DNA from: Eledone cirrhosa | Taxonomy: Eukaryota | DNA: 64,000 nt | Assembly (NCBI GenBank): GCA_964016885.1 | Contig: OZ024740.1 | Location: 336,722,001-336,786,000 of the forward strand | Direction: 5' to 3' | Part shown: positions 8,536-63,999 of the stretch, one piece after another | Layout: the number at the start of each line of letters is the position of its first letter | How positions within the stretch are numbered: position 1 is the first letter of the stretch | The notes under the pieces: generated by a model | What the model saw: the letters and a program-made list of their open reading frames with translations, nothing else | The model's database searches: none | What the model was told of the DNA's origin: nothing | Position numbers and translations under genes: made by a program

Positions 8536-9071
8536 TAATTTATCAGCAACTAGACACCTGGAGCTCTTTCTTCTATATGTCATGTCTCCTCACCCTATGT
8601 AAGTAACCTATGTATTATCTGGTTCTGTATTTATACTTAGTCAATGTCCTGGGGTCACTAGAGTTCAGAGAGATCCCTCTGCTGAACACAGATGCCATTG
8701 GTTCATAAGCTATCACTCCCTAAGACATTTAGCATTGAAAACCTAGACTAACTTCATTCTAAATAAATAGTATAAAAATGAACTTTTAGGTAGAGGGCAT
8801 ATATGTGTGTGTGTGCGTGTGCGCCTGCGCATGTGTGTGTGTGTGTGCATGTATCAGTCAAAGGTATTACCTTATATATATTTTTTTTTTATTATGCTAA
8901 ATAGGAGGAACAGTAACAATGACCATTACAAAGTCTTTAGACAGGAAAGATTGATGCAGTTGATGTTCCATTTGAATTTCTGAGGTTCTCCTATTTTAAA
9001 CAGATGTTGGTAAAGATATCTTTGATCCAGTTACAATAATCAATGACACTCAAACACTTCTTATTTTCCAG

Positions 9072-9271
9072 AAAAGTCCAAAAGTCAAGGAGAACTTCAT
9101 CCAGGGGTTATATGTAACAATTGTGGTACACAAGTTCGAGGCAATCGTTATAAATGTCTAATATGTCATGAATATGAACTGTGTGAAGATTGTGAGAACC
9201 TTAGAGTCCATTTAGAACATGCAGTCATCAGAATTCCAAATCCAACTACCCACTGGATGCCACTTGTAACG
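9072..9271 (+). CDS. SQSTM1: SQSTM1/p62-like gene, ZZ zinc-finger exon (phase 1 in, phase 0 out)
   Basis: Acceptor TTCTTATTTTCCAG| and donor |GTAAGA. Translates KSKSQGELHPGVICNNCGTQVRGNRYKCLICHEYELCEDCENLRVHLEHAVIRIPNPTTHWMPLVT, the ZZ pattern CxxC..RYKCxxC..LCxxC..HxxH preceded by the p62-typical HPGVIC. Absent from the ORF track. Confidence 0.9.
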
Positions 9272-10670: not shown

Positions 10671-13600
10671 TTAAGGGTACTATTTATGGTTATGTATGCA
10701 ATAAAACCTTTGATGGTAATATATTATATATACACAGACCCTAAATAGTGAGAGATAGTCATTAATTACTATCCTATTACCAGTAAGATAAATAGCTCAA
10801 TGTAATAACATCAGTTGTTTTACAGAGCAGTTATATAGAGATTACAGTAATCAAAGTTCAGTTTAAGTCATTTATTTGCTTACAATTGTTTCCTCCAAAC
10901 CGAGGTTTGGATTCTTCGGAGCAACTATTTATAACATACTTGACCTCCATTTCAACCCAAGAGACACATAAAACATATGCGCATATTGATCAACAGTGGG
11001 GTGACATTCATCAAATGATATAGCATGGCAATTTACATATAAAGGTTACAGGATAAAAATAAAATAAAATAAAAACAAGAGTGAAAATAAGAGTGAAAAT
11101 AAAGATAAACATGAAGCGTTGGCAGTCTATGAAGATAAAGCAAGAGGAAAGCTTAGAGTAGTCAGTGTATGAAACAATCTCCCGTGTAGCATGCACGCGT
11201 GTCTTATCTATACATGATTAGAGTGCATCAGAATGATATTTGCAGGGTCAGGCAGTTGAAGCAGGCAATCGATCTTATTATATAGGCTGAATTATTAAGT
11301 CATTTATTCTCATACATCTGTATGATATACAGTCTCGGATGCGGGGAAACACCAAAATATCAAAAACCTTCAACATACTATAAACCTTATTGTATCGTAT
11401 GCAAGGTCGTACCACTGTCCTTGCTCACACCACCACTCACATAATCCATGAGACGCAATATATATATAGAGAACACGCGTCTATCGTATAATTCGCAGTG
11501 GTTCAGCATATAGTCAAGCTATAAACCGTATCCAGTCGGTTCTTAATTAATATATCATGCTGTCCAGATTCCGGAAGTGCCTGAATGACTAAGGGGAATT
11601 AATGCGTAAGGGGAGGTAACTAGCTAGTTATCTTAGTTACATTACTATGCTAAACTACATTAATGGTGATTCAAATACGTGCCTATCATGTGAAGTTATA
11701 ACTAATATCTAGAGTATGTTACCCATTTATAGGTTAGAGAGTTGTCCATTAAGAAGTACAAGGGTGTATATATTAGGATGATTACCATCCATTAATTAAG
11801 GGGTGTCATATCTGAACGTTCTATAAGAGGAGTCAGACTCTCAAGTCACTGCTCCATGCAAATGTAATATAACAGTAGGACCTGGTATGGTCCCACTATT
11901 ATATATGCCACCCGGTAGGCTCCGGGTCATTGCTTGCCTGCATCTCCAGTAAATCTTCGGTATGGTCCGGAGATCCAATCTCTCATATAAATGCACTAGT
12001 CTGGCCATCAAGCAATAGACAACCCCCGTCTCAAATATAAATCAATTATGTATCACATCTCCAAGTTGGAGTGGAGTCTATTAATAGGTATTAAAGGAGT
12101 CCACATCAAGATGATTACGTGCATAATTCAATGAACTGATCGTTTACAGTATATAATCACTTAACAATACGATTATCTATCTAATCATCAATCTATCTCT
12201 TGGTGGTAATCCATGCACAGGACTATGCTATCGCAACCAGTACCGTGTCCCCAATTTATACTAATCTTATATTTGTGCAATGCAGAATAAGTAGTCCACG
12301 GTCGAGATATCAGTATTAGAGGTACAAGGGGGTATTCCCAGGGTAGGTGGTACTAAAATGCTGTCAGTATTATCTTTAGAGTATAGAGATGGGTGTGGAT
12401 GTGAGGTGTAAGGTGTGCTACTGATGTTAATTGCTAGGGGTGGTGCTGGTTCCAGTCTGACATTATTATATATAGGGTTTAAAGTTTTGGAACGAGTGTC
12501 GGAAGCGGTGTTGGCAATTTGCGAACACTTCTGATTTTTTATTAAGGAGATTATGTTTAGAGAAGATGATAGTATGGGTCTCTAGTAGACAGAGGTTACA
12601 AAATTTATCAGGTGGTTTGTACGATGTTGCACTACCTACCACTTCCCATTTAAGTGTATATATTTTATTTTTAGTTTTTAGATAGTGTATGTAGCTAGAT
12701 AGTGAAGTGGAGTTGGCTAGACTGTGTTTTTTGAAAGAGTGGAGGTGCGAATTGTATCTAGTTTTGAAGCAGTTAGAAGTGGAGCCTATGTAGGTTTCAG
12801 AAGAGCTGTTAGTTGTGACTGTACATGAGTATATGATATCCTTGGTTAAGCATTTTTTATCTAAAGGGCAGGTTCTACTTGATCTACAGTTACAATTACT
12901 CTGGGTGCTAGTCTGCCGGTTACTATGCTGTGTAGAAGTTTGGAGGTTAGCTATAGGGTTATGGTTATGCGGGTTGTGGTACGCAGCGTTAATGTTTACA
13001 CTAGTGCTATTACTATTATTTCCATTGATATTACGGTTATTTGTTATAATGTTACTTTGACTGTTATTTTGAATGTTATTTTGAAGGTTTATCGACCGTT
13101 GTGATTTAGTTTGTTGGAAGTAAGAATTAATTTTTCTTTTATTTGTACTAGCTATGTGGTATGCTAAGTTAGGCGTAGTAGAGTATGAGATCTTAATAGT
13201 GTTTTTGTTTAAAAGGCCGTGGTACCTGTGGCCGGATGGGAAGTGTTTATCTAGTAGTGAGAAGAAAGCCCTAGGAAGGTTGGTAGAGACGTTTAAATTG
13301 AAAGGAGGGTTGAAAAATGTATTATTTCTTCTTCTATTTCTGTGTTTTATGCCTGGTGATTTGTTTCCTTTAATGTTCCTATGGTCATTTCTGTGGTGCG
13401 GGTTACTCTTGTTGTTACAATCCCTATTAGTGTGTGTGCAGTTGCTATTCCTATTATTAAATTTTCCCATGCACATGTTGTGTGAAATGATGTTGTAGCT
13501 ATGTGTTTTTGTAGGTAGGAACTCTATCCCTGTATTATGGCCTGATCTAGCTAATGCCTGATTATAATACTGCGAGTTATTGTTAAATGTGTTTATGTCA

Positions 13601-14345
13601 TGGGATAGATTAGAGATTCTATTAGATACTCCCTTAGAGATAGAGTTCAATATAGATTTAGGGTGGTTAGACTTGGTATCTACGTAGATGAGTTTTTCAT
13701 TAGGTTTGTGGAAAGGTGCATATATCATTGAGTCTAAGTAGAGTGTGGCGTCTAGGAAGTTGACGTTTATGGTGTTTTTGTCCATGGTAATACTAAGGTT
13801 AAAGTTTTTGAATGTTTTGTGCAATAGTTTTCTACTCCTTTCTATATTGAATTTTTTATAGTCTATAAGTAGAAGTGCATCGTCGCGATACAAACCACCG
13901 CTGAGGTACGGAAGTTCCCTGTGGATTAGGTTAAGTAAGTATAGGCCAACCAAATCAGATTAAACACAAGATTTACCTTAAGCAATGGGGAAATACGGGT
14001 GAAGTGATTGAATGGTTCAAAAATATCATAGATAACAAGGATAAAAAATGTATTCAATTTGATATCAACTCTTACTACACCTCTATTTCTCCTATCCTAC
14101 TAAATAAGGCACTTATAATGGCCATGGACAATAGTGACTTGACTAGACCCCAGATTGATGTCATACTTGCGGCCCATAAAACAATAATCACCTTTGAGGA
14201 CCAATTATGGACCCGCAAGGATACGCAAAACAACTTCGACATTACTATGGGGTCTAGTGACTCGGCGCAGGTCACTGGTTTGGTTGGCCTATACTTACTT
14301 AACCTAATCCACAGGGAACTTCCGTACCTCAGCGGTGGTTTGTAT
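10668..14345 (-). mobile_element. Penelope-like retroelement (RT plus C-terminal GIY-YIG endonuclease), 5'-truncated with an inverted 5' segment, inserted in (TA)n
   Basis: ORF 12466..13953 (-) has GGLYRDD, NFLD, a CxCx5Cx5C linker (CNCRSSRTCPLDKKC) and IIY...YIGST...FKTRYNSH. The upstream RT part (IQFDINSYY...MGS) is on + at about 13960-14345. (TA)n on both sides. Confidence 0.9.
10876..10924 (-). ncRNA. Minimal type I hammerhead ribozyme in the Penelope 3' region (variant core CCGAAGA)
   Basis: Minus strand: TTGCT-CCGAAGA-A-TCCAAAC(CTCG)GTTTGGA-G-GAA-ACAATTGT-A-AGCAA. Stem I TTGCT/AGCAA, 7-bp stem II, palindromic stem III, GUA cleavage triplet. Confidence 0.75.
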
Positions 14346-14384
14346 ATATATATATATATACTTATATATATATATATATATATA

Positions 14385-14467
<83 letters not shown>

Positions 14468-14514
14468 TTATATATATATATATATATATATACTTATATA
14501 TATATATATATATA

Positions 14515-15418
14515 TCATCATCATCATATCATCATCACCGTTTTACATCCGTTCTTCCACGCTAGCATGGGTTAGACGGGTTGTCCTGTTGTGGGCAGTG
14601 TCTGGTCGGCTGACCATGCCTTGCTCATACAGGAACTGTATATATATACTTATATATATATATATATACTTATATATATATATCATCATCATCATCACCG
14701 TTTTACGTCCGTTCTTCCACGCTAGCATGCGTTAGACGGGTTGTCCTGTTATGGGCAGTGTCTGGTCGGCTGACCATGCCTTGCTCATACAGGAGCTAAT
14801 TTGGCTTGATTTCTACAGCTGGATGCCCTTCCTAACACCAACCTCATTTACAGTGAGTGCTGGGTGCTTTTTCGTGGCGCCTACACGTCCACTTTACAGT
14901 GTGGGCTGGTTGCTTTTTTGCTGTGGCACCTCCACGACCACCTTGCAGTGGGGGGTGTGGGGGCATATTGTCCATATGCATCAGCTTGTACCCATGAGAG
15001 GTCGGGTACTCTGTATTTGCTGCGTGACACCAGAGGTCACGGTCGTGTGTCATCGCCTTTGAGAGGTGTAATTGGGTAAGGTTGGCTTTTATCACCTCAT
15101 CCCAGGTCATCTTGGGTCTCCCCACTCTGCGGTTTCCATCGACTTCTAGTGCTCTGCACCTTTTTATGCAGCTGTCATCCTGCATACGCATCACATGTCC
15201 ATACCAACGCAACCGCCTCTTCTGTACACAGCATTTGATTCCTCTTATGCTCAGTCTTTCTCTCAATTCATTTAGGCTTTGTCGGTCGCATATATTACTA
15301 TTACACATCCATCGGAGCATGCAGGCTTCGTTTCTCTCTAATCTACGTAAGTCTTCCACCTTCAGTACCCAGGTCTCACTACCATGCAACATTGCTGTTC
15401 GGATACACGCATCATACA
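14515..15418 (-). mobile_element. RTE LINE subfamily B 3' fragment (14683-15418) plus an extra copy of its 3' tip (14515-14637)
   Basis: Reverse complement of about 35780-36513; ORF 14844..15392 LHGSETW...RRLRWYGHV...GRPK; (GAT)n tail abutting (TA)n. Confidence 0.9.
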
Positions 15419-15505
15419 GTATATATATATATATATATACGTATATATCATAAGTATATATATATACTTATATATATATATATATACTTATATATATACA
15501 CTTAC

Positions 15506-17602: not shown

Positions 17603-19706
17603 ATAAATGGGAGAAGGACAGTCTCCCACATCGACCCAATAGAGGGACCAGCAGTGTTAGTTGAAGGTAGTATAATAAGTAAGGCAATCAAAGATATGAA
17701 GACGGGTAAGGCGGCTGGGCCTTCGGAAATAGTTGCTGAGATGCTGAAAGCCTCTGGAACGGTGGGACACACCATGGTCACCCGGATAGTAAACCAAGTC
17801 ATACAGAATGGGGTTGTTCCGAAGGACTGGCGTAGCAGCATCATCATTAACTGTTACAAGGGTAAAGGAGATGCCCTAGATAGGAGTAACTATAGAGGCA
17901 TTAAATTAATCGACCAGGTCATGAAGGTCACGGAGAAAGTAATAGTGCAACTAATCAGAGAGAGAATTGATCTAAATGAAATGCAGTTCGGGTTTGTGTC
18001 AGGTAAAAGTACCACAGACGCTCTTTTCATTGTACGACAACTACAGGAGAAGTACCTAGCTAAAAGTAAACCCCTATACTTAGCTTTTGTCGACTTGGAG
18101 AAAGCCTTCAACAGAGTCCCCCGTTCCATTATCTGGTGGGCTCTTAGAAAACTAGGTGTTGATGAATGGCTTGTGAGAGCTATACAAGCCATGTATAAAG
18201 AAACAGTCAGCAAGGTTAGAATTAACAATGAATATAGTGAAGAGTTTAGCATAAAAGTTGGTGTTCATCAGGGCTCTGTTCTTAGCCCCCTACTATTTAT
18301 TATTGCCCTTCAGGCTATAACAGTGGAGTTCAAGACCAGCTGCCCATGGGAATTCCTATACGCAGATGATCTAACGCTCATATCTGAATCAATGGCCGAG
18401 CTAGAGAAGAAATTCCAAACATGGAAGCACGGCCTAGAATCAAAAGGCCTTAAAATTAACCTGGCTAAGACTAAAGTTCTAGTTTGTAGGAAAGAAAATA
18501 AGGCGCCGGTCCCTTCCGGGAAATGGCCATGCTCAGTGTGTAGGAAAGGCGTAGGTATAAACTCCATTTTATGTCCCAAATGCAAAGTATGGGTGCATAA
18601 AAGATGTATTGGGATCACAGGTAAACTAACTAAGAACATAGATTTTACATGTGGCCGGTGCTCTGGTGCAATAAGTAGCAGCAAGTGCCCACAAAATACT
18701 AGCTCTTTCAATTGCGCAGAGGGTTCTATAGAAATAGTGGACAGCTTCCGTTACCTGGGTGACAAAATCAGCAGTGGGGGAGGGTGCTCTGAAAGTACAG
18801 TAGCTAGAGTCAGAACTGGATGGAAAAAGTTCAGAGAGCTTATACCACTATTAGTCGCTAAAGGGTTCTCCCTAAAAATGAAAGGCAGGCTGTATGATGC
18901 CTGCATACGAACAGCAATGTTACATGGCAGTGAGACCTGGGCATTGTGTGCAGAGGATATACGCAGACTAGAGAGGAACGAAGCTTGCATGCTCCGCTGG
19001 ATGTGTAATAGTAATATATGCAAACGGCAAAGCATAAACGAACTAAGGGAAAAATTAGAAATAAGAGGGATCAGATGTTGTTTAGTCGAGAGAAGGCTAC
19101 GTTGGTATGGTCACCTGATGCGCATGAAAGACGACAGCTGTATAAAAAAGTGCAGGGCAATAAAGATAAACGGTAGCCACGGAGTAGGCAGACCCAGAAA
19201 AACCTGGGACGACCTGATAAATTCCAACCTCACACACTTACACCTCTCCAAGACAATGTCACTGGACCAAGATCTTTGGCGGTACTCAGTAATAGAGAAG
19301 ACCCGCCTTACCTGAATACAAAGTAAAACCTACTACAGTCAGTAGGCATCTCTAACAAAACACACACCCGTCCCACCACCCCCACCCCATCCACACCGCC
19401 CCTTTCAATGTAAAGTTATGTTGGTGCCACAACATCCAGGCCGAAACAAATGAGATCGTGTAGGTGTCACGACAAAAAAAACACACAGTCCACGCTGTAA
19501 TATGGCCGTGTAGGCAACACGGTAAAAACCTCCCAGTCCCACACTGTAAATGTGGTTGGTGTTAGGAAGGGCATCCAGCTGTAGAAAACCCGCCAGACAG
19601 TCTTATGCGAGCAAGACAACCACTCTTGCCTCAAGTGGGAAAACTCCCATCCAAACCCATGCAAGCGTGGAACATGGACGTTAAACGATGATGATGATGA
19701 TGATGA
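17603..19706 (+). mobile_element. RTE-clade LINE subfamily A, 5'-truncated, RT frame intact (553 aa), (GAT)n tail into (TA)n
   Basis: KGKGD..NYRGI, QFGF, FVDLEKAF, GVHQGSVLSP, YADD, FRYLG, RRLRWYGH, GRPRKTW. Confidence 0.95.
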
Positions 19707-23389: not shown

Positions 23390-24133
23390 GTGAGTATGTT
23401 ACTTCTACAGGTAATTTGATAATGTTTAAGTATAACCACTTAAAAAATTGATCGACAAGATCCTAAACCTCATTCAATTACTAAGTGAGGGCGAACTCAT
23501 CAAATCAGACCAAGGAAATAATGTTTCCAGTGGTATTTCTATTATGATACTCTCTACCAGTCACAAACCCTGGCGGAAAGAGTTACATGAAATACAGTAT
23601 CTTGCTCAAGGACATAACACATTGCCGAGTCCAGGAATGAACTTGCAACATTAAGATTGTGGATCCAGTTATTTAACCCCGAAGCCATGCACCTTCACAT
23701 ATACATAATTTACTCATTACCAATGCTAATTCTGTTGTATTTCATTTAAATTCAGAATATGTGACACCATACTAAAAATATTAAAGACCTCTTTTGTCTA
23801 CACCTGAATGGTTGTAGTTGTTATTACTGTCTATCACATCTCTGAACTGCTATCAGCAACTACTACTTTTGCTAGTATCTAACACAACCATGAGATAACC
23901 ACATCAGCTAAACATAGCTTTACTGTAGCTAACAAAACCAAGCAACAAACAGAGGAGGGAGAAGTAAAAAAGGGCAGATCTGGCTGTAAAGGAAAGTAGG
24001 AGAAAGGGCTATAAATGCCATAAATGAGAGGAAAAGGAGGGAAAAGGCATGGACTGTGATACCATGTAAAGGAGAGTGAAGAGGAGAGGGTTATAGGCTC
24101 TGTGCCTAGAGTGGGGCAATGTTCAGGCTGTGT

Positions 24134-30122: not shown

Positions 30123-30564
30123 CCTATCTAATATTGAGTCAATTCTTCTTCAACATCTCTTTCTCATTTCCTGTCTATCACTTTCTCTCCTTCTCTAGAA
30201 GAAATCGTGTTCAGACATAGAGAGGAGCTGGGCTTCACCAGGTTCTAAAAAATACTGTATGTCACCTGGGCACTCCTACGACTCCACCACAGGTTACAGG
30301 CCCATATATACATACACATATATGCATGTACATTCAATGCTATTCGATAATTCTGTCTGATCGTTCAAAATAATCTTCTTGTATTTTAAAATCCCATAAT
30401 TCTTCCCGTATTACAGTTATATGCTCGTTCGATTAGGGCCAAAATTTTGTGGATTTTATTTTATAACCTTCTCGCTAACTACCCCCGCCCCACTCACCAC
30501 CATTATTATTTGGACCAATCATAAGTCAGCAGCCTATGTTATCACTTCTTAAGTTTAGACCTGG

Positions 30565-33500
30565 TTGCCTTTCGATATGATGGATGGACTACGGAATTCT
30601 GGAGAGTCTGAAAAATCTGGACACTCAGTGACAATGCCAAAGATAATGACAAATTCACCTCATGCTGCCAGAAGAGAATGCAAGGACTCCTCCTCTTTAT
30701 TTAGGCCGCGGACGGCTAACATAGCCCCATCCCCCTCACCCCTCCCTGCGCCCTGTCCTTCCCACCCACCAAACGCAATCCAAAACTTCAGAGTTGGCAC
30801 CATGAATGTAGGTACCTTAAAAGGTCGCTCTAACGAGGTTGTAGAGATGCTTGAACGTAAGGAGATTGATGTTTGCTGTATTCAAGAGACCAGGTGGAGG
30901 GGTGGGTCTGCTAGATTCATTGTGGGTAAAAAACGATGCTATAAGCTTTTCTGGGTGGGAAATGACAATGGGCTGGGTGGAGTAGGAATCATGGTAGCAG
31001 AAAAGTGGGCAGATAAGATAATAGATGTAAATAGAGTGAACAACAGAATAATTAAAATAAGACTTGTCCTCAATAGAACTACTGACAATAATATCTGCTT
31101 ATGCACCCCAACCCGGACTGCCTGGCATTATAAAAGACAGATTCTATGAGTCGTTAATGCTCATTACCTCCCAAATAACTGACAGTGACTATATAATTAT
31201 TGCTGGTGACCTAAATGGTCACATTGGACAACACTGTGACGACTATGACGGAATCCATGGAGGCTATGGGTTTGGTACTAGAAATGAGGAAGGCTCCAGA
31301 TACCTGGAATTCTGTGACGCAAATAATCTAACTATCTGTCCCCTTCTTTTGTGCCCCTGTGGCTAATAAAGAAACATATCTGTAACACAAACTTCAAAAA
31401 ACGAGACAATCACTTGATCACCTATAGATTAGGGGAACATGCCAGTCAGATAGATTATATCCTTACCAGAAGACGAGACAGAGTGTCTGTTGTAAACACT
31501 AAATCCCTCCCCCATGAAGAATGCACCTCCCAACATAGCCTCATAGTTAACGACCTCATAGTCAGGACGAGACGTATTCGACAACAGAGGAGGACTATCC
31601 TTAGGAGAAAAATATGGAAGTTAAATGACCCCACAGCCAGTAATAAATTTAAAAGCATATTACTTGATGCTTTTGACAGTAAGGAAGAGCAATTAGAGTC
31701 GTACAATATAGAGGAACAGTGGGAATTCCTGAAAGCTAACCTGCTGAAGGTGACAGATGAAATCTGTGGCTGGAGCAGACCTATAGGCAAGAGGAGAGTA
31801 ACTTGGTGGTAGAACAGTAAGGTGGAGGAGTCGATCAAGGCCAAAAAGCAGGCTTGGAAAGTATGGCGGGATGGGAGAAGTAGAGAAGACTATCAAGTGG
31901 CTAGGAGACAAGTGTACTTTGCAAGAGGGGAAGCAGAGGAAAGAAAATTCAAGCATGTTCTACAACACAAGGACCAAAAACGTGAGGTGTTCAGGATTGC
32001 TAGACAATGTGTCAAGGAGAACCGTGATATTGTCGGGGAGAAGTGTGTCCATAATGATGATGGTGTACTTGCCATCACTGACGCTGATAAGAAGGTAGCT
32101 TGGAAGTGTCACTACGAAAGGCTACTAAATTAGGAGAATAAATGGGAGAAAGACAGCCTCCCCCACATCGATCCAATAGAGGGACCAACAGTGCAAGTTG
32201 AAGGTAGTATAATAAGTAAGGCAATCAAAGATATGAAGATGGTCAAGGCGGCTGGGCCTTCGGAAATAGTTGCTGAAATGCTGAAAGCATCTGGAACGGT
32301 AGGACACACTATGGTCACCCGAATAGTAAACCAAGTTATACAGAATGGAGTCGTACCAAAGGACTGGTGTAGCAGCATCATCATTAACTGCTACAAGGGT
32401 AAAGGAGACGCCCTAGATAGGGGAAACTATAGAGGCATTAAATTAATTGACAAGGTCATGAAGGTCACAGAAAGAGTTATAGCGCAACTAATCAGAGAGC
32501 GAATTGATCTAGATGAAATGCAGTTCAGGTTTGTGTCAGGTAAAAGTACCACAGACGCTCTTTTCATTGTACAACAACTACAGGAGAAGTACCTAGCTAA
32601 AAGTAAACCCCTCTACTTAGCTTTTGTAGACCTGGAGAAAGCCTTTGACAGAGTCCCCGTTCCATTATCTGGTGGCCTCTTAGAAAACTAGGTGTAGATG
32701 AATGGCTTGTGAGAGCTATACAAGCCATGTATAAAGAAACAGTCAGCAAGGTTAGAATTAACAACGAATATAGTGAAGAGTTTAGCGTAAAAGTTGGTGT
32801 TCATCAGGGCTCTGTCCTTAGCCCCCTCCTATTTATTATCACCCTCCAAGCTATAACGGAGGAGTTCAAGACCAGCTGCCCATGGCAACTTCTATATGCA
32901 GATGATCTAACACTCATAGCCGAATCAATGGCTGAACTAGAGAAGAAATTCCAAACATGGAAGCATGGCCTAGAATCAAAAGGCCTTAAAGTTAACTTGT
33001 CTAAGACTAAAGTCCTAATATGTAGGAAGCAGAATAGGGCACTGGTCCCATCTTGGAAATGGCCATGCTCAGTGTGTAGGAAAGGAGTAGGCAGAAACTC
33101 CATTTTATGTCCCAAATGCAAAGTATGGGTACATAAAAGATGTACTGGGATCACAGGTAAGCTAACTAAGAATATAGATTTTATATGTGGCCGGTGCTCT
33201 GGTGCAATAAGTAGCAGCAAATGCCCACAGAATACTAACTCATTCCATTGCCCAGATGGTTCTATAGAAATAGTGGACACCTTCCGTTACCTGGGTGACA
33301 AAATCAGCAGTGGTGGCGGGTGCTCTGAAAGTACTGTAGCTAGAGTCCGAACGGGATGGAAAAAGTTCAGAGAGCTTATACCACTATTGGTCACTAAAGG
33401 TTTCTCTCTAAAAATAAAAGGCAGGCTGCATGATGCCTGCATACGAACAGCGATGTTACATGGCAGTGCGACATGGGCATTGTGTGCAGAGGACCTACGC

Positions 33501-33995
33501 AGACTGGAGAGGAACGAAGCTTGCATGCTCCGCTGGATGTGTAATAGTAATATACGTGAACGCCAAAGCATAAATGAACTAAGTGAGAAATTAGGAATTA
33601 GAGGAATCAGATGCTGTTTTCTCGAGAGAAGACTACGTTGGTATGGTCACGTGATGCGCATGAAAGATGACAGCTGTATAAAAAAAATGCAGGGCGATCA
33701 AAATAGACAGTAGCTACGGAGTAAGCAGACCCAGAAAAACCTGGGATGACTTGATAAAATCCGACCTCACACACTTACACCTCTCCAAGACAATGTCACT
33801 GGACCGAGATCTTTGGCGCTACATAGTAATACAGAAGACCCGCCTTGCCTAAGTACAAAGCGAAACCTACAGTCAGTAGGCACCTTTTAACCAAAATACA
33901 CTCCCCTCCCACTAACCCTACCCCCACCGCCATCTACACCACACCTTTCGATGTAAAGCTATGTTGGTACCACAACATCCAGTCCTAAATAAACG
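30565..33995 (+). mobile_element. Near full-length RTE-clade LINE (APE endonuclease plus RT), inactivated by stops and frameshifts; 3' UTR cut off at the Chapaev3-like remnant
   Basis: GTMNVGTL...CCIQETRW, SAYAPQ, AGDLNGHIG, SQIDYIL, then an RT closely similar to 17654..19315, split over at least six ORFs. Confidence 0.95.
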
Positions 33996-35194: not shown

Positions 35195-35247
35195 AGTCTT
35201 GTCTGATGATTGTGAAAGTAGACGGGAAACTCTGAAGTAACAAGATT
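35195..35247 (+). ncRNA. Type I hammerhead ribozyme motif
   Basis: AGTCTTGT-CTGATGA-TTGT(GAAAGTAG)ACGG-GAA-ACT(CTGA)AGT-A-ACAAGATT: 8-bp stem I, intact core, wobble-weakened stem II, GUA site. Confidence 0.75.
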
Positions 35248-35304
35248 CATCATTTAGCCATAGAAAAGAGTATATATAAATATATATTTATATATACTCC
35301 AAAT

Positions 35305-36513
35305 AAATTCCAAACCTGGAAGCAGGGACTAGAGAGAAAGGGCCTCAAAGTCAACATGACAAAGACTAAGGTCCTTATAAGTAGACGAGAAAACAGAACC
35401 CAGATCCCCTCAGGGAAATGGCCTTGCTCAGTATGTAGGAAAGGTGTAGGTAGGAACTCCATTCTCTGCCCCAAATGCAAACAATGGGTACACAAGAGAT
35501 GTAGCGGGATCTCAGGAAGCTTAATTAAGAATGTAGGATTCACATGCAGCAGCTGTGCTGAAACAGCAAGCAAACAGCCACAGGAAACAAGTACCACCAA
35601 TCTCTGGGAGGGCCCTGTAGAAACAGTAGACAGCTTCTGCTACCTAGGTGACCGAATTAGCAACGGAGGTGGGTGCTCAGAAAGTACAATAACTAGGGTA
35701 AGAACGGGATGGAAGAAGTTTAGGGAACTACTACCACTGCTAGCTGCAAAAGGCTTCTCCCTCAGAATGAAAGGCAGACTGTATGATGCGTGTATCCGAA
35801 CAGCGATGTTGCATGGTAGTGAGACCTGGGCGCTGAAGGTGGAAGACTTACGTAGATTAGAGAGAAACGAAGCCTGCATGCTCCGATGGATGTGTAACAG
35901 TAATATACGTGAACGACAAAGCATAAAGGAATTGAGAGAGAGACTGAGCATAAGAGGAATCAAATGCTGCGTGCAGGAGAGGCGGTTACGCTGGTATGGA
36001 CATGTGATGCGTATGAAGGATGACAGCTGCATAAAAAGGTGCAGAGCACTAGAAGTTGATGGAAACCGCGGAGTGGGGAGACCCAAGATGACTTGGGATG
36101 AGGTGATAAAAGCCGACCTTACCCAACTACACCTCTCAAAGTCAATGACACACGACCGTGACTTCTGGTGTTACGCAGTAATACAGGGTACCCGACCTCC
36201 CATGGGTACATGCTGAAGCATATAAACAATATGCCCCCACTCCCCCCACCGCAAGGTGGTCGTGGAGGTGCCACGGCAAAAAAGCACCCAGCCCACACTG
36301 TAAAGTGGACGTGTAGGCGCCACGAAAAAGCACCCAGCACTCACTGTAAATGAGGTTGGTGTTAGGAAGGGCATCCAGCTGTAGAAATCAAGCCAGATCA
36401 GTTCCTGTATGAGCAAGGCATGGTCAGCCGACCAGACACTGCCCACAACAGGACAACCCGTCTAACCCATGCTAGCGTGGAAGAACGGACGTAAAACGGT
36501 GATGATGATGATG
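35305..36513 (+). mobile_element. RTE LINE subfamily B, 5'-truncated, (GAT)n tail
   Basis: ORF 35356..36216 is homologous to the C-terminal half of subfamily A but has a different 3' UTR. Confidence 0.92.
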
Positions 36514-36666: not shown

Positions 36667-37968
36667 GGTGTGGACGATATTTGTTCGCAATTTTCAACTG
36701 CTAATTTTATGCAAATTTTTTTTACTTCCGTTGTCACTCTTGTCTTCATAAAAACAGTGACTATATTTCCATTATTTATTTTCAGAATAATTGATTATAA
36801 ATAATTTTGAACCTACAAATTTGTGGAAGAGACACGGAGTTCTTGGAATCCACGCCGGGAGGACAAATAAGGAAATTTCAGACTTTCTAAGCGTCAGCAG
36901 GAGAATGGTGGAAAAGGTCAGAAAGGAATTGGAAGATTCAGGATTTGACTACGAAGCAACATCAGAGAGGAAAACACATGATCGAGGATCTGACGCCTTC
37001 AGAATGTCCGAGTTCGTCGCTGAAGTTCAGGATATCATCAACAATGAACCTAGCAAGTCGATGCGTGCCATTGCAAGGGAGAAAGGCGTGGGTGAAAAGC
37101 TCATTAGGCTGGTGGTACATGAAGACATTCGCTATGTTTCATACAAGATGAGGAAAGAACAATTTCTGTCAAAGGCGATGCAAGAAAAGCGACTGAAGCA
37201 CACAAAGAAGCTGATCAACAAGTTGAAACACCCACTGGAGCCAGACATGCTGTGGTTTTTCTCCGACGAGAAAAACTTCTGCTAAGACCAGAAGATCAAC
37301 TCCCAGAACAACAGGTGGCTCGCTGTCTCATCCAAAGACGTGCCCAGAGTCATGCAGTCAAAGTTTCCAGCGACAACATTGGTCTTAGGTGTCGTCAGCA
37401 GTCAAAATGACGTCATGCCACCTCACTTCTTCCCTGAGGGCCTCAAGCTGAACACCGATGGCTACATCCGCGTTCTGAGCGAGGTAGTAAAGCCCTGGAT
37501 TGACCAGGTAGCTGCAGGTAGGCCGTACTTGTGGCAGCAAGACTCAGCGCCCTGCCATACCAGCCGAAAGACCCAAGCCTGGCTGTCAGAGAACTTCGTC
37601 GACCACACTTCACCTGACATCTGGCCTCCCAACTCGCCTGACTGAAACCCCCCTTGACTTCTTTGTGTGGGGCGCAGTGGAACGAGACACCAACAAATCT
37701 AGCTGCAATACGTAAGACGATCTGAAGGCCAGGATCACAAGTGCCTTTAGAGGCCTAAGTTGGGGGACAGTGACGAAGGCCTGTAGCCAGTTCCGAGATC
37801 GCCTTGAGGCCGTCATCAAAGCCAATGGCGGGTTTATCGAGTGATATCGAAAGAACAAGTCATGAAGACAAACTGACCCAAGTTTGATAAATATATCTTA
37901 AAAAATAAAACTACTGTGTTATTTTTTCCTAGACAGTAATCTTGCAAACAAATATCGTCCGCACCCTG
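36664..37968 (+). mobile_element. Tc1/mariner DD37D (maT-type) transposon, full length, defective transposase
   Basis: 27-bp TIRs CAGGGTGTGGACGATATTTGTTCGCAA / TTGCAAACAAATATCGTCCGCACCCTG, TA TSD inside (TA)n; FSDEKNF, WQQDSAPCH, WPPNSPDxNPLD with 37 residues between the second and third D after correcting a +1 frameshift; stops at 37283 and 37643. Confidence 0.92.
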
Positions 37969-39916: not shown

Positions 39917-40119
39917 ATGAAAGTTGAGAACATCGTACGTGTGGTGGATATGTGCCCCCAAATTGTAAAACATTGATCCCTTTATCAGTCTGAGAGGCCC
40001 TGAAAAAGGTCGTGGGTACTGTCATCCCCTCGTTGAAATAACAGTATTTAAAAAGTGATAATAGTGAAATATGTTTAGTCTTAAGTTGATTCAAAACATC
40101 TCTTCTGAATTTGTTTCAG

Positions 40120-40295
40120 TTCGCCGGTATGCAGAGGCATTGGATAATTTGCTGAGTATGGGTTTCTCCAATGAAGGTGGCTGGCTTTCAATACTGGTAG
40201 AAGAAAAGCGAGGAGATATCATCCGTGTCCTGGACTTTATTGAAAACAACATCCAAAAGTGTAAAGAAAATGAGCAAGCCAAAACAAGGCGTTAA
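40120..40295 (+). CDS. SQSTM1: SQSTM1/p62-like terminal UBA exon
   Basis: Acceptor TTTGTTTCAG|, phase 1; EALDNLLSMGFSNEGGWLSILVEEKRGDIIRVLD matches the p62 UBA signature (LSMGFSDEGGWL); stop TAA at 40293-40295. Confidence 0.92.
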
Positions 40296-57215: not shown

Positions 57216-57903
57216 GTGTTGTTTAACTGAATAAATAGATCATAGGATACAAGAGAGGCCATGACAACAGTGAGAAGTCCCAACTCAGTTGGACTGCACT
57301 CACATAAAAAAAATCCAGGCACGTCCAGGAATTCAATGGAAAATGTTTGATGTCTTTTTTTTATTATCATTGTTATTGTTTTCACTTTTATTTTTATTTA
57401 TTTAACTTTTTTTTTTCAATTCTGAGATGGAACTGTGTTTAAGAATATACCAATATACCAATCTCAGAACATTGGTCTGAAGAACTAAAGAAATATTGTG
57501 TGTCTGTGTATGTATGTATAATGTTACTTTCTCACTTTTTATTTACTCAACCAAGCCCTGCAATATATATATATAATATAATTCAAATTCAATCTTTCAG
57601 TTTTTGAGGACAAATGTTTGGGGAATGGGGAAAGGTTTGGTGTCTTGCAGGTTTTGTTTGAGTTTTTCTTTGTTTATTGTTGTTGTTCTTTTTTATTGAG
57701 AAATATGAAGAAAAAAATTATATATTTCAACCACTTGAAAGTTTGTGCATATGTATGTGTGTATATGTGCCTGCATGTGTTTCTGTATGAAATACAAATG
57801 TTTTAAAACAACCCTGCAAATGACAGTAAACTTAACATTTTTTTAATTGTTAGCAAAATGTTTTATTAGTTTTATTCATTGTTCCATTTTATGTTTTTAT
57901 TTA

Positions 57904-57934
<31 letters not shown>

Positions 57935-58644
57935 AGCTGTGGTGTGGTGGTGGTGGTGGTGGTGGTAGTGGCATTGTATGGAGTTAATGGAAACTCCAAT
58001 GAGCGTTGAATATTTTTTTTGTCATTGTGTATGTGTGTTTTGGGGTTTGATAACCATGATTTTTTGATGAAAAATAAACCCCAGTCAACACAGTATGAAA
58101 TGTCAAGTTGTGGTTGTTACTGTTTCATTGAATTAGTTAAATGTGGATGTTGTTATTATTTTTTTTATATATTTTAATTTTATTTTTTTAAATAGTCGTT
58201 TTCATCTCCAATGTTAGGAAATAAATTTCAATAAAATTTTTTTATTTTTGTTTTCAAAATTTTAGCACAAAAATAACTTTTTTTCCCATCTTTTCAACCA
58301 GTTTGCTGTTATCTTTTTACATTATATGTATATATTTATATAATGTGTATGTGTGTGTATATATATATATATGTATATATGTGTATGTATATATATATAT
58401 ATATAATTTAGCATAGACTATTTTATAATCTCTGCATTCAGCATTGGTTGTTTTACAAAGTTTTGTAGTGTTTTAGCCTCCAATGAACGAAAATTAAACA
58501 GTTCAGAATGTATCAACCCATCCCATCCCAACAGTCCACTTTCATCCCTGTAACCCTAATTAACCCAAGCCACTTTTACTGTTGCTGCTCTTCTCGCCCT
58601 CCCCTGATTTAAAGATTTTCATTTTACTTATCAACAACAATGAA

Positions 58645-61600
58645 TCAAACGATGAAATCAGGGTCTTCATCACTATCGGCGTCATCTTCACTATCACTGA
58701 GACGACGCCGTTTCTTGCGCATCTTCTTCTTAGGAGGAGGTTTTGGAGTTAACTTGGGTGATGGTTTGATTTTCTTTTTCTTTTCAAGTAAAGCAGCATA
58801 ATGTTGGTTACGAGGCGTATGAGGGTGATGAAATGGTGCTTGATGCTGACTTCGGGGTTTGATTCCATCAGAGCCGTCGGAAACTTTATTGGTAATGACC
58901 ACTTCATTGACACCTTTAGACTCAACATGATTCTTAGCTCCTTCAGAAACTGAGTGCTTTATTTGTGGATTGATTTTGACATTGTCATCAGAATCATCGT
59001 CATCTGGAGGGTCAATACTCAACATTAATTGTTTGAAATCAAGGAATTCTTCAATTAATTTTCGTTTCCCTTCTTCATCAAGAGTATCTGATGGTTTTTT
59101 CTTGAGTAACTCAATAGTTGATGTTGGATTAAAATCTATTGAATATTTCCTTGCCAAAGGCTTATCATAAACTTTAGCCGCTTCTGCTGGTGAATAACGA
59201 TGGACTTTTGTGTCGGTGAAGCCATATAACTCTTTCAGATGCTGTTTCAGGACAAGAAGCAGTACACATCCTTGAGAGATGCGGCATATCTCCTGCAGCG
59301 GCACCACATTCTCAGGTAATCTTTCCATGATGCTTTCTATTTCTTCATCATCTTCATCATCAAATGTTTCTCCTTTTTTTCTATCAGTATCTTTCTTTGG
59401 TAGAAGACATTCTTTGAAAGACTGTAACAGGTTAGAGCCAGATACTGAGACAATAATGTCTATTTGATGAATGATAAATAATGGTTCGTCTTGAGATTGA
59501 TAAGCGAAAAAGGCAAGGTTATCAGCTATGTACAGAAGTTGCTCAAGTGATGCGCGTGCTGAATCATCAAATAGATTCAAAAGAGAAGTGATTAGCGCTC
59601 TTCGATAGGTTCGATTGGCCCGAAGAACTGCATAAAGGAATGCATTTAAACTAAGATTGACAGCATCCTGGGTCCTAAGGCCTCGAACTGGCTCTGAAGA
59701 ATCTTGAATGATACTTTGGAACTTATATGACATCTTTACACCTTGTAGAGCCTTCATATGAATGAACCCAGGATACTTCTTATCAATATCTTGAAGTTGT
59801 TGATCTGATCTCACTCTCACACTTGGATCCGTTTCTGTTCCCATTGTTATTAAATAGGGCACACACTGTACTGGGTGAATAAGACCCTGGCGGAGTACGA
59901 GCTGAATAATATCAAGAGCAGACTGTCGTACCTGGAAATTGGCACAAATGAAAGACTCAAGAACTTGTTTCAGGTACACCTGTATGATGGTGCTTGCCAT
60001 TCCTGATTGTAAATCACCCATATCTCGTAGATCCTCCCCTTTACATTGCTTTCTCCATTCAGCATCAGCTATGATCATTTTTGTTTCTTCCTCAACTAGA
60101 TAGCTGTGCACGTTCCGCAATGCTTGGATCTTCAGCTTTACAGCTGCACCACTGTTTGTAAATAGATAATAATAGAGTCCTTTCAATGTTTTCCCAAGCA
60201 TATATTCATAATGACGGACACACATGAAGCCAAGTCCTGTCAAAGCTTTTACACGCACTTCTTCATCTTCATGTTCAATAAAATAAAACAGAACATCGAA
60301 TACTCGATCTTTTATAGGAACTTTTGCTTTTGTTTCTCCCATTTCTTTCGAATCAAAGTCAAAATGGCGGCACAAAAGGCCCACAGTGAAAAGTGACCTC
60401 AACAATGTAGGTCTTCTCTTTTGAAGGGTTGGATTGTTAGCGTTTTCTTTGTGGTCAGCCATTAACTTAGAAAGAACGCCAAAAAATTTCTGGAAGCAAT
60501 CTTTAACTAGTCGATAATTATGACTGACATTGTTAACAACAGCACCAAGGCAACTGACGCAGCTCTGTAAAACCATCATTCCATGCTTTAGAATCAACTT
60601 CATCATGTCTTCTTCAAGTTGTGCCAGAAATGTTTCACTTGGATGGTCCATGAGAGGCACCACCACCTCAAGAATACGTGCAACAAAGTGAAGCACCATA
60701 ACATCACCTTGCGTGTTGCATTTGATATTTAAATATGGCTGAAGTGTAATTGCATGTTGAACCATGAGATCAGGTTTAATCTTACTGAAGAGATGTAGTG
60801 TGGTCAAACATGCTATCAGGCGCTGTGGATGAGAAGTATTATCACCATCCACTAATTTTTCTTCTAAACTCATGACATTTTCAACAAGGCAGTTAACAAT
60901 TTGCTGAGAAGCCAGCAAAGCACTCTTATTATAGTGACCGTCATCATCTTTCTTTAACAAATTTTCTAGCAAATGTTCAAAGAATTCCAAGCCACTGTCT
61001 TTACACGCAGCAACAACTTCTGTAATATTCACAACACGTCTCAGAAGTCTGGATGAATCTCTGTCACGTAAAGGACAAAACCACATCATTTGGAAAACCT
61101 CATTGACTAGTTTTTTTATACCTTCTTCATCATTTACTCTACGGATCATTTTCACACACATCTCAGGTATTTTGTTAAAATCAGGTTGTCCAAGACAAAT
61201 GTCTTTGAAAATCTTTATCACTCTTTTTCTTACACTAATACCTGTATCGAGAATCCGATCACATAACATATCATAATATTTGGGGATCAGTTCAGGTTTG
61301 ATCAGTATGAACTTTCCAACAAGTTCTACAGCTGCTTCTCGAACAGATGTTGATTGATCCAGAAACCTTCCATGCACTCCACGTTGCATATCATCACGAG
61401 CAAGAATTCCAGGGTCAGCTTCTACAACTGCTGTTAAACATTTCATTGCCTTTGTTCGTACTGCCACAGCTGTTTCGCTGAGCACACGTAAAATTTGAGT
61501 CAGGTATACATCAAAGCTCTGGGCAAATGGTCTCTTAGAGCTAAGATAGCGTGCTACAAGACAAGAGTCCTCAGTATCTAGTCTGCATTGTGACTGTCTC

Positions 61601-63999
61601 ATGTTATTTATTGGTTTGCTCGGGATTTCAATTATTGAAATTAAAAAGGCTTTCCCTTTCTCTGCTATTTCTAAGGCATGGTTCACTTCTTCAACTCTTT
61701 CATCTTCTTCTTCTTCTTTTAGTTGTTTAATTTTCTTCTGTAATTTTTCTGCTTCAACAGTGATATCCCGATACCACTGAGCAATATAAAATTGTCTTGC
61801 AAACAGCAGTGCAGCATCACTTTGTCCATTCTCAGCCAAATAGTACAGCATGGCTTTTTGCAAACTTTTTGTCTGCTTAATTTCATCTACACTGTCTTTA
61901 TTGGCTTCCTTCTTTACATCATTCTCTTCAGTCATTTCATTGTCTATTTTTGAAATAATCTCTTCGATCATGTCTGGGTTCATTTGACTAGAGACAGCAT
62001 CACTGCGAAGACGAGCAGCAACTATGCCTAAATACTCTAATGATGCAACTCTCAAAGACATGTCCGTAGATTTATTGCTGAACTGCTGTACAAGGATTCT
62101 CCCGAGAAGACTAAGCAACAGTTCTGAAGCTGGCCATTCTGGTTTGTTCACTGTAGATAGTAAATCCTGAACAAAATTTTCAAAAAGAGGACGATAGTCA
62201 TCTTCACTTTTGGCTGTACACTTCTTAAGAAAGACAGAGAGGAAGTTATAACCAGTTCTCATTGCTGTCTCATATGATGTTACAATCATGACATCACCAT
62301 CTACATGCTTTTTTCTATCCCCCAATAATCTTTTATCTATTAAAGGTTTTTCATCAATGCAAATCTCAGATATAATAGATTTTGCTGAAGGCAATTTAAC
62401 AACACATTGGATCAGCTGCAAGGCAAGAGCTGTTACCATCTGTATAGATTCATCAGCATTCAAGCGATAGTTGCGAAGGTTCCGTTTGGTGGATGGTAGT
62501 CGAGCTAGTGAGGCAAAAATATCTTCCAAAATAAGTTGCCTGTGTTTATCATACTTAGAAAAAATATTTGTAACCAACTTCATTGAATTTAACTGCATTT
62601 CACTAATGTTCTCAACAAAGAAAGGAGACACACTTAATGTAGACACTTGCAAAATGACAGTGTCTGTCAGTTCTTGAATGCTCAATAACTCACTCAGAGC
62701 TTTGATGAGCTCACAAAGTTTATTATATAAAGTTATTGTAGCTTTGTGCTTAACTGATTGAGTACGAGCTCGTTTAGATTTCAGGTTGCCTTGGTAACCT
62801 CCTTTCGCATGAGGATCTATTTTATATACCGGATCAAACTCTGGGTAAACTGTATTCTGAAGCTGCCACTTACCAAATAGAATGATTCTTTCAATAACAT
62901 CATCTAAATACACCTGCTTTGGCATTTCTGGGGCAGTCATTATGTAAAGAGCTGCCAGAGAAGCATCCACGCTCCTCATCACTCTCTCCATCATCATTTC
63001 TCGCCACATTACAGATTCCTCATCGTCTTCATCTTCATCTTCCTCAGGTTTTATATTTGGTGCTAGCTTTACACCATCTCGTACATTCCACTGAAGTATT
63101 GTAAGTAGCTTCACAAGTTTATCGGAGGGAATTTGATTTGTTACTTTTTGGGCTTTCAGTTTTGCAGCTTCTCCACAGATTTCGGCAAGTACCTGTCTTG
63201 CAATCAATGATTCCGGTGGACATTCTGTATCATCATCATCTGGATCAAGAGATCCAAAATCAATCTCCTCCGCACTATCAAATACATACTCCACTGCCTG
63301 AGCAAATTTTCTAAATGTTGGACTATCAAATAACTCCTCAGAACTTAATGCTCGCTGATTCATACGTTTGTGTCGTTTCCGACGTTTTTTCCGTGCTGAT
63401 TCATCCATTTCTTCTTCTTCATCACTTGAATACAATCTTTTTGTACTTTTTATTTTTTTCATAGTGTCACAATCTGTCCTAATTCTTCCTCCAGAGACAA
63501 CAGACTGAAGTGTTTTGGGATCTAAAAGTTCTAACACCACAATAGGCTTAGAATTTTTAGCAACTAAAAGGTCAACTTGCTTACTAAAAGATATCTCTTC
63601 GACATCTTCTGGTTTCATTTGCCTTTGTTGTTGTTGTTGCAGTAAATAATCCTCCGGTAGAACAATAGAGAAGGGTGGACACTGCTTTGATTTATCTGTT
63701 TTCTCCGAAGACATGTTGCGTGTTCGTCGTTTACACAGCTCCATATCTGCCTCTACACAGGAAGAACTAGCAGTGGCCGTGAATGGTGCAGGAAATCTGA
63801 TACTCTGGTGAAATTCTCCACTAACAGAGGCGGAATCTCTCCGTAGACCATGTGGCATTTGTTGCAGAGACAGGCTATCTGATCCACTCTTTCTGCGACC
63901 AGACATGTCCTGACAAATGTTCATACACTCAGTGGAAGGCTTGTTCTCAAAAGAGATGCTGCGCTTCGGTACTGAGGTAGATTTGGTACTACTGGTTCG
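58645..63999 (-). CDS. NIPBL: Nipped-B-like protein (cohesin loader Scc2), C-terminal ~1785 codons in a single exon; 5' end lies beyond the window
   Basis: Conserved NIPBL blocks: VYLDDVIERI, LILEDIFASLARLP, YRPLFENFVQDLLSTVNKPEWPASELLLSLLG, AVRTKAMKCL, SVREAAVELVGKF, RILDTGISVRKRVIKI, QGLIHPVQCVPYLI, YIADNLAFF, EPLFIIHQIDIIVSVSGSNLLQSFKE; PxVxL motif KPIVVL at 63532-63546. The frame stays open from 63924 to the window edge (RTSSTKSTSVPKRSISFENKPSTEC), so the listed Met is probably internal. Confidence 0.97.
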   Translation of the reverse strand, partial: RTSSTKSTSVPKRSISFENKPSTECMNICQDMSGRRKSGSDSLSLQQMPHGLRRDSASVSGEFHQSIRFPAPFTATASSSCVEADMELCKRRTRNMSSEKTDKSKQCPPFSIVLPEDYLLQQQQQRQMKPEDVEEISFSKQVDLLVAKNSKPIVVLELLDPKTLQSVVSGGRIRTDCDTMKKIKSTKRLYSSDEEEEMDESARKKRRKRHKRMNQRALSSEELFDSPTFRKFAQAVEYVFDSAEEIDFGSLDPDDDDTECPPESLIARQVLAEICGEAAKLKAQKVTNQIPSDKLVKLLTILQWNVRDGVKLAPNIKPEEDEDEDDEESVMWREMMMERVMRSVDASLAALYIMTAPEMPKQVYLDDVIERIILFGKWQLQNTVYPEFDPVYKIDPHAKGGYQGNLKSKRARTQSVKHKATITLYNKLCELIKALSELLSIQELTDTVILQVSTLSVSPFFVENISEMQLNSMKLVTNIFSKYDKHRQLILEDIFASLARLPSTKRNLRNYRLNADESIQMVTALALQLIQCVVKLPSAKSIISEICIDEKPLIDKRLLGDRKKHVDGDVMIVTSYETAMRTGYNFLSVFLKKCTAKSEDDYRPLFENFVQDLLSTVNKPEWPASELLLSLLGRILVQQFSNKSTDMSLRVASLEYLGIVAARLRSDAVSSQMNPDMIEEIISKIDNEMTEENDVKKEANKDSVDEIKQTKSLQKAMLYYLAENGQSDAALLFARQFYIAQWYRDITVEAEKLQKKIKQLKEEEEDERVEEVNHALEIAEKGKAFLISIIEIPSKPINNMRQSQCRLDTEDSCLVARYLSSKRPFAQSFDVYLTQILRVLSETAVAVRTKAMKCLTAVVEADPGILARDDMQRGVHGRFLDQSTSVREAAVELVGKFILIKPELIPKYYDMLCDRILDTGISVRKRVIKIFKDICLGQPDFNKIPEMCVKMIRRVNDEEGIKKLVNEVFQMMWFCPLRDRDSSRLLRRVVNITEVVAACKDSGLEFFEHLLENLLKKDDDGHYNKSALLASQQIVNCLVENVMSLEEKLVDGDNTSHPQRLIACLTTLHLFSKIKPDLMVQHAITLQPYLNIKCNTQGDVMVLHFVARILEVVVPLMDHPSETFLAQLEEDMMKLILKHGMMVLQSCVSCLGAVVNNVSHNYRLVKDCFQKFFGVLSKLMADHKENANNPTLQKRRPTLLRSLFTVGLLCRHFDFDSKEMGETKAKVPIKDRVFDVLFYFIEHEDEEVRVKALTGLGFMCVRHYEYMLGKTLKGLYYYLFTNSGAAVKLKIQALRNVHSYLVEEETKMIIADAEWRKQCKGEDLRDMGDLQSGMASTIIQVYLKQVLESFICANFQVRQSALDIIQLVLRQGLIHPVQCVPYLITMGTETDPSVRVRSDQQLQDIDKKYPGFIHMKALQGVKMSYKFQSIIQDSSEPVRGLRTQDAVNLSLNAFLYAVLRANRTYRRALITSLLNLFDDSARASLEQLLYIADNLAFFAYQSQDEPLFIIHQIDIIVSVSGSNLLQSFKECLLPKKDTDRKKGETFDDEDDEEIESIMERLPENVVPLQEICRISQGCVLLLVLKQHLKELYGFTDTKVHRYSPAEAAKVYDKPLARKYSIDFNPTSTIELLKKKPSDTLDEEGKRKLIEEFLDFKQLMLSIDPPDDDDSDDNVKINPQIKHSVSEGAKNHVESKGVNEVVITNKVSDGSDGIKPRSQHQAPFHHPHTPRNQHYAALLEKKKKIKPSPKLTPKPPPKKKMRKKRRRLSDSEDDADSDEDPDFIV

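Follow-up and report, generated by a model that had tools for sequence, protein, structure and literature searches.

An intact intronless second NIPBL gene, likely a retrogene, and its spliced parent in the octopod Eledone cirrhosa

The genome of Eledone cirrhosa holds a real, ancient and intact second gene for the cohesin loader NIPBL (Nipped-B/Scc2), which has no coding introns and is likely a retrogene of a spliced copy that still resides on another chromosome. Its 3′ part lies in the window, by which we mean the whole 64,000-nucleotide stretch analysed (G000:C1:336722001-336786000 of a 3.0-Gb assembly), where 1,784 stop-free codons on the minus strand extend from the right edge to a stop codon at 58645 (58645..63999); were stops as frequent as they are on average in the five remaining frames, the random expectation for such a frame would be ~1e-63. 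The frame extends 331 codons past the edge, up to G000:C1:336786992, with the start Met 993 bases outside the window, and the complete coding sequence is one unbroken frame of 2,115 codons (2,115 aa) with zero coding introns. No N letters occur in the 60 kb of DNA running outward from the gene. An earlier note on this DNA had described an intact frame of more than 5.3 kb without stops and had proposed inspecting the adjacent DNA for the N-terminal MAU2-binding region. The frame is confirmed by the 1,784 codons seen, with which the Pfam and human NIPBL matches agree, and in the adjacent DNA the same frame runs on and the N terminus is present. The frame on contig C1 is thus the 3′ part of a genuine intron-free NIPBL coding sequence.

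The encoded protein carries both Cohesin_HEAT (PF12765; 61318..61443, minus strand, E 8.5e-13, 48.9 bits) and Nipped-B_C (PF12830; 59452..59997, minus strand, E 4e-51, 174.1 bits) above the Pfam cut-off, and its HEAT-repeat body, as aligned to human NIPBL, occupies 58972..63402 on the same strand. This body spans 36 of the 37 intron positions modelled in the second copy, on contig C15, and the 37th maps to 58851 (minus strand). Against human NIPBL (6wg3_E) the C1 protein scores 1,688 bits, its closest named protein is that of Argonauta (92% over residues 540-2000), and protein matches and trees together support orthology with animal NIPBL across the HEAT body. Outside the window, the frame adds 18 extra N-terminal residues, a conserved N-terminal segment and a Q/S-rich stretch. 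The conserved segment, which by sequence is retained in the C1 protein, corresponds to the MAU2 contact described for human NIPBL (10.1101/477752). Basic clusters are also found in the protein, and a PIVVL motif of the PxVxL type lies at 63532..63546 (minus strand), the C15 copy carrying the motif as well. PxVxL is an HP1-binding motif with a role in human NIPBL, and the PIVVL of the C1 copy fits it. The 3′ flank of the gene (57300..58644, minus strand) is AT-rich and contains several AATAAA hexamers.

Searching the genome with one C-terminal and one N-terminal piece of NIPBL, so that locus counts are lower bounds, we found at least two loci, C1 and C15, on which both queries agree. On C15, 38 exon-sized matches lie in order across 110 kb, and the conserved part was modelled as 38 exons with GT-AG boundaries at 37/37 introns and zero stops; three further N-terminal exons were located, giving at least 41 coding exons. 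The model excludes the low-complexity middle, which gave about 7-8 weak matches. In runs X4, X12 and X18, RNA contigs span the five C15 exons examined and skip the introns, with X4 and X12 joining at 4/4 predicted GT..AG junctions and X18 at 3/4 (the fourth with a few differing letters), and the read depth of X4 is zero in most C15 intron bins. Run X1 covers the C15 introns and is DNA. The C15 NIPBL is an intact, spliced, living gene. Three of its exon pairs (39+96, 107+67 and 55+136 nt) resemble single human exons, presumably split by extra introns. RAD21 is found on the same contig as this parent gene, 20 Mb away (G000:C15:1545898-1547950).

The earlier note had advised a search for other NIPBL loci and had offered a second cohesin-loader paralog, a replacement of the parent, or wholesale intron loss as readings of the C1 frame. 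With an intact intronless C1 copy alongside an intron-containing C15 parent, the first of these holds. Replacement is ruled out in this genome by the intact and spliced C15 copy, and in-place intron loss of a sole copy by the coexistence of the intron-rich one. An orphan retrogene, in which the parent is lost or pseudogenised, is likewise rejected, C15 being neither.

Human NIPBL is described with 47 exons (PMC7549606; PMC4100155), as the earlier note had it, and with 46 coding exons (PMC4100155). To compare introns we used 12 human junctions in the alignable region, with positions taken from PMC4100155, PMC4746300 and PMC7549606 (four of them derived from stated exon lengths); c.868 and c.1495, which fall in unalignable sequence, were excluded. 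Eleven of the 12 coincide with C15 introns at the identical alignment column and phase, and the twelfth has the same phase but lies one column off beside an indel. Nine of the 12 were exact on first mapping, and local recalibration of the other three gave two exact matches and the one displaced by a column. The chance of an intron-position match is ~0.008 per site. C15 begins with a coding exon of 64 nt, the same as human c.64, and the two junctions that follow are at 233 and 352 in C15 versus 230 and 358 in human, with equal phases. Because the C15 introns match human positions, the intron-rich state is ancestral and the intron-free state derived; the refutation envisaged in the earlier note, that molluscan and other lophotrochozoan orthologues are single-exon here as well, is not borne out, the paralogue retaining human intron positions. 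At the modelled C15 junctions the C1 sequence is gap-free and colinear over four codons on each side in 33/37 cases and has an indel nearby in 4/37. All 39 precisely located parent introns, the first and last coding introns included, are absent from C1.

Over 1,544 codons the two copies share 75% protein identity and 70% DNA identity, with dN 0.19, pS 0.75 and a dN/dS of about 0.05, the last figure being approximate since dS (3.9) is near saturation. Taken together, the intact frame and this low ratio, which the earlier note had listed among its checks, show strong purifying selection on the C1 copy.

The pair is not private to this species, as Sepia pharaonis has two Scc2 proteins, one per type. 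We built one tree of 24 rows (C1, the C15 model and 22 of at least 120 matches) and a second of 21 rows (C1, C15, 15 matches from the first tree and four of at least 120 others). In both, a clade of the C1 gene with Argonauta, Sepia P0004 and Logan P0005 and a clade of C15 with Sepia P0006 (support 100/99-100 for each) are sisters, apart from other molluscs. In the second tree the 75% match P0128 groups with the non-cephalopod molluscs. A duplication confined to octopods is rejected, as forcing the octopod sequences together gives a p-AU of 1e-43 (LG+G4). The duplication is shown to predate the octopod-cuttlefish split and is older than the coleoid crown, placed at about 270 Ma (PMC13652810). 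The parent type in Sepia is represented by isoforms and exon-sized fragments, and Logan P0126/P0127 end at C15 intron 37, so the Sepia parent-type gene has introns. Among the matches listed there is no Nautilus or other pre-duplication cephalopod sequence and no Argonauta parent-type protein. The intron loss could postdate the duplication.

With regard to expression, 575 words were sampled from the C1 stretch, and the spliced-RNA run X4 contains 0.99 of them; this stretch and the modelled C15 parent have no 31-mer in common. From these words the C1 copy is likely transcribed, X4 and the DNA runs richest in C1 words belonging to one study. A donor-like site ~1.5 kb upstream of the C1 start is a candidate only. 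For each of the partner genes MAU2, RAD21, STAG and WAPL we found a single locus, split into exons, counts that are lower bounds from a search of limited sensitivity, in which no separate REC8 locus was found either. A duplication of the whole cohesin system is rejected on these four single loci, SMC1, SMC3, PDS5 and CTCF being outside the search. Going by its conserved residues and domains, the C1 copy is likely a functional second loader of cohesin.

At the flanks of the C1 gene we recognised neither a poly(A) remnant nor a target-site duplication, hallmarks of retroposition that would be expected to be erased at this age, given that synonymous sites are near saturation. The C1 3′ flank has no similarity to the parent 3′ flank except simple repeats. 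Similarity between C1 and the parent reaches 18 nt into the parent 5′ UTR, and weakly to the parent splice acceptor, which fits either an RNA or a DNA route. The 18-residue extension of C1 partly aligns to the parent 5′ UTR (L006:6939-6992, minus strand, versus L025:2850-2884, plus strand), and this UTR contains an in-frame ATG-TAA.

The two copies lie on different contigs, and the UBA exon of the gene next to C1 is without a match on C15 (one neighbour only). This neighbour appears to be a multi-exon plus-strand gene (~9000-40292), tail-to-tail with NIPBL and SQSTM1/p62-like by domain, with candidate exons at about 9000-9158 and 23436-23651 and a later exon with a UBA_5 match at 40068-40292. 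The earlier note had assigned it introns of up to 14 kb; a spacing of ~14 kb is indeed found between the two candidate exons. An Atlas search with the neighbour exon gave no match. Some 185 kb along C1 there is another UBA match, on the opposite strand. We considered that NIPBL might be nested in a host gene and found none, the neighbour ending near 40.3 kb on the other strand. The 50 kb upstream of C1 contained transposon-like or unmatched frames only (63 filtered ORFs, four of them sent to Pfam). Within the window, fragments of LINEs carry reverse transcriptase, endonuclease and a PHD-like finger (17603-19315, 30559-33849, 35236-36216 and 14844-15467), and a frame pair without Pfam match and Tc1/mariner-like transposase remnants were also noted (window 12466-14735 and 36791-37841; L009:7396-8328). 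The frame pair is presumably Penelope-like. An origin by movement out of the Z chromosome was considered and rejected on one marker: Amnionless, reported as Z-linked in Octopus vulgaris (10.1101/2024.12.09.627507), is on C28 (G000:C28:56351442-56394054), not on C15 or C1, which makes C28 a candidate Z chromosome by that marker.

The account that we regard as probable is that the C1 gene is a retrogene, made in a cephalopod ancestor from a reverse-transcribed full-length mRNA, and now a second co-expressed loader that shares dosage or expression with its parent. A full-length, spliced NIPBL mRNA would have been reverse-transcribed and inserted in that ancestor, an RNA origin to which the loss of the 39 located introns and the location on another chromosome both point. 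Retroposition is favoured by the complete intron loss, the other chromosome, the lack of a C15 match for the UBA exon and the abundance of LINE reverse transcriptases. We consider it rather unlikely that the copy arose instead at the DNA level, for example in the course of a coleoid chromosome rearrangement, and then lost its introns wholesale by cDNA recombination. The missing hallmarks and the large-scale rearrangement reported for the coleoid ancestor (PMC13652810) would suit such a history, but that history has to contend with the disappearance of every located intron and no 3′-biased partial pattern, with copies on different chromosomes, with a neighbouring UBA exon that has no C15 paralogue, and with MAU2, RAD21, STAG and WAPL at one locus each. 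That the C1 copy is an artefact or a dead copy, be it assembled cDNA, a mis-assembly or a processed pseudogene, is very improbable and effectively already refuted. Contamination by cDNA had been raised in the earlier note, and the 30% difference in DNA from the sole spliced copy means that C1 is not a cDNA of the C15 gene. Genomic repeats surround it on a contig of 443 Mb, its unbroken frame has a dN/dS of about 0.05, and it has orthologues in Argonauta and Sepia. The DNA run X1 contains 1.00 of the C1 words, although X1-X3, the richest DNA runs, may be the assembly's own sample; X5, from another organism and study, contains 0.43. Fifteen runs of other organisms contain 0.09-0.12 of the words and are not counted as evidence.

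For the function of the retrogene, the favoured account is that the C1 protein would act with the one MAU2 and the one cohesin set, binding them and stimulating loop extrusion, by conservation and by analogy with human biochemistry, and that it may have been retained through sharing of dosage or expression with the parent. The main functional rival, which we hold to be unlikely, accepts the same RNA origin but makes C1 a specialist rather than a partner in dosage, loading cohesin for a single tissue or process such as the germ line, neurons or the long-range control of protocadherin or zinc-finger clusters. Retrogenes often turn testis-biased, which counts for specialisation, as do the N-terminal extension of 18 residues, which is also conserved in Argonauta and P0005, and 84 columns fixed differently between the C1 and C15 clades. 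These differences and the strongly diverged low-complexity middle, which hardly aligns between the copies, leave room for functional divergence, and the copy has been retained for at least about 270 My (PMC13652810). However, the fixed differences are evenly split, the mollusc majority matching the C1 type in 34 and the C15 type in 30, and relative-rate tests of C1 versus C15 give no consistent asymmetry (p<0.05 in 1/10). Moreover, 54 non-cephalopod homologues show no variation in 241 columns, and the invariant residue is retained by C1 in 236 of these and by C15 in 238; both copies appear in a single RNA run, X4.

Compared with known systems, the C1 protein resembles NIPBL/Nipped-B/Scc2 (human 6wg3_E and 6wge_E; PF12830, PF12765) in its full domain order and conserved N-terminal segment, but differs from human NIPBL in length (2,115 versus 2,804 aa), in having no coding intron and in being a second copy in its genome. 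The known NIPBL duplicates, as far as described in PMC3201921, are the syntenic teleost pair. As with the expressed nipbla and nipblb, two NIPBL genes are retained in one genome, the C1 copy here being likely transcribed; unlike those zebrafish genes, which lie in syntenic neighbourhoods and are DNA-level duplicates (PMC3201921), one copy here is intronless and located on a different chromosome, and each of the further cohesin genes tested gave one locus. The C1 gene is intronless, dispersed, intact and under purifying selection, like the functional retrogenes with retained parents described in PMC5470649 and PMC4772013, but it differs in its 6.3 kb of coding sequence, a parent with >40 exons, an age at least that of the coleoid crown, and as its target a dosage-sensitive chromatin motor subunit. 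Single-exon copies of ancient multi-exon genes are also described in amphioxus SYCP1, another chromosome-biology gene (PMC5803294), and in human orphan retrogenes (PMC3548309), from which the present case differs in that the NIPBL parent was not lost and both copies are intact. Midasin is likewise a very long single-frame gene here, with three AAA-lid matches (G000:C17:15760447-15765030) within one 5,535-codon open frame, so that very long intronless genes exist in this genome.

A cephalopod NIPBL duplicate or retrogene is not mentioned in the accessible literature, subscription papers and supplements aside, and NIPBL/Nipped-B does not appear in the main texts of PMC13652810, PMC10658181, PMC9023564, PMC10925132, PMC13218726, PMC12682272 and 10.1101/2024.12.09.627507, whose supplements could list the pair; public annotation already includes two Sepia SCC2 entries. 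In vertebrates NIPBL is dosage-sensitive, and it is the factor that sets cohesin loading and loop extrusion (PMC4746300; PMC5016002). Coleoids have large, rearranged genomes in which CTCF/cohesin loops are thought to be used, and a 2023 review describes functional cohesin data as absent for spiralians (PMC10658181). By conjecture, the pair may be relevant to genome architecture in this lineage. A bolder extension, which strikes us as unlikely, is that a burst of long-mRNA retroposition on the coleoid stem, close in time to the great chromosome rearrangement, left squid, cuttlefish and octopus with an additional loader made without splicing, expressed fast and with targets of its own. Two kinds of loop-extruding cohesin would result, and NIPBL would be the member of that burst in which both parent and copy survive. 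As a long intronless gene with a surviving parent, the C1/C15 pair bears on how giant intronless genes arise, and shows directly that a duplicate is involved, the parent being kept. A likely second loader common to octopods and cuttlefish, with four partner genes single here, offers a concrete pair for knockout and chromatin mapping.
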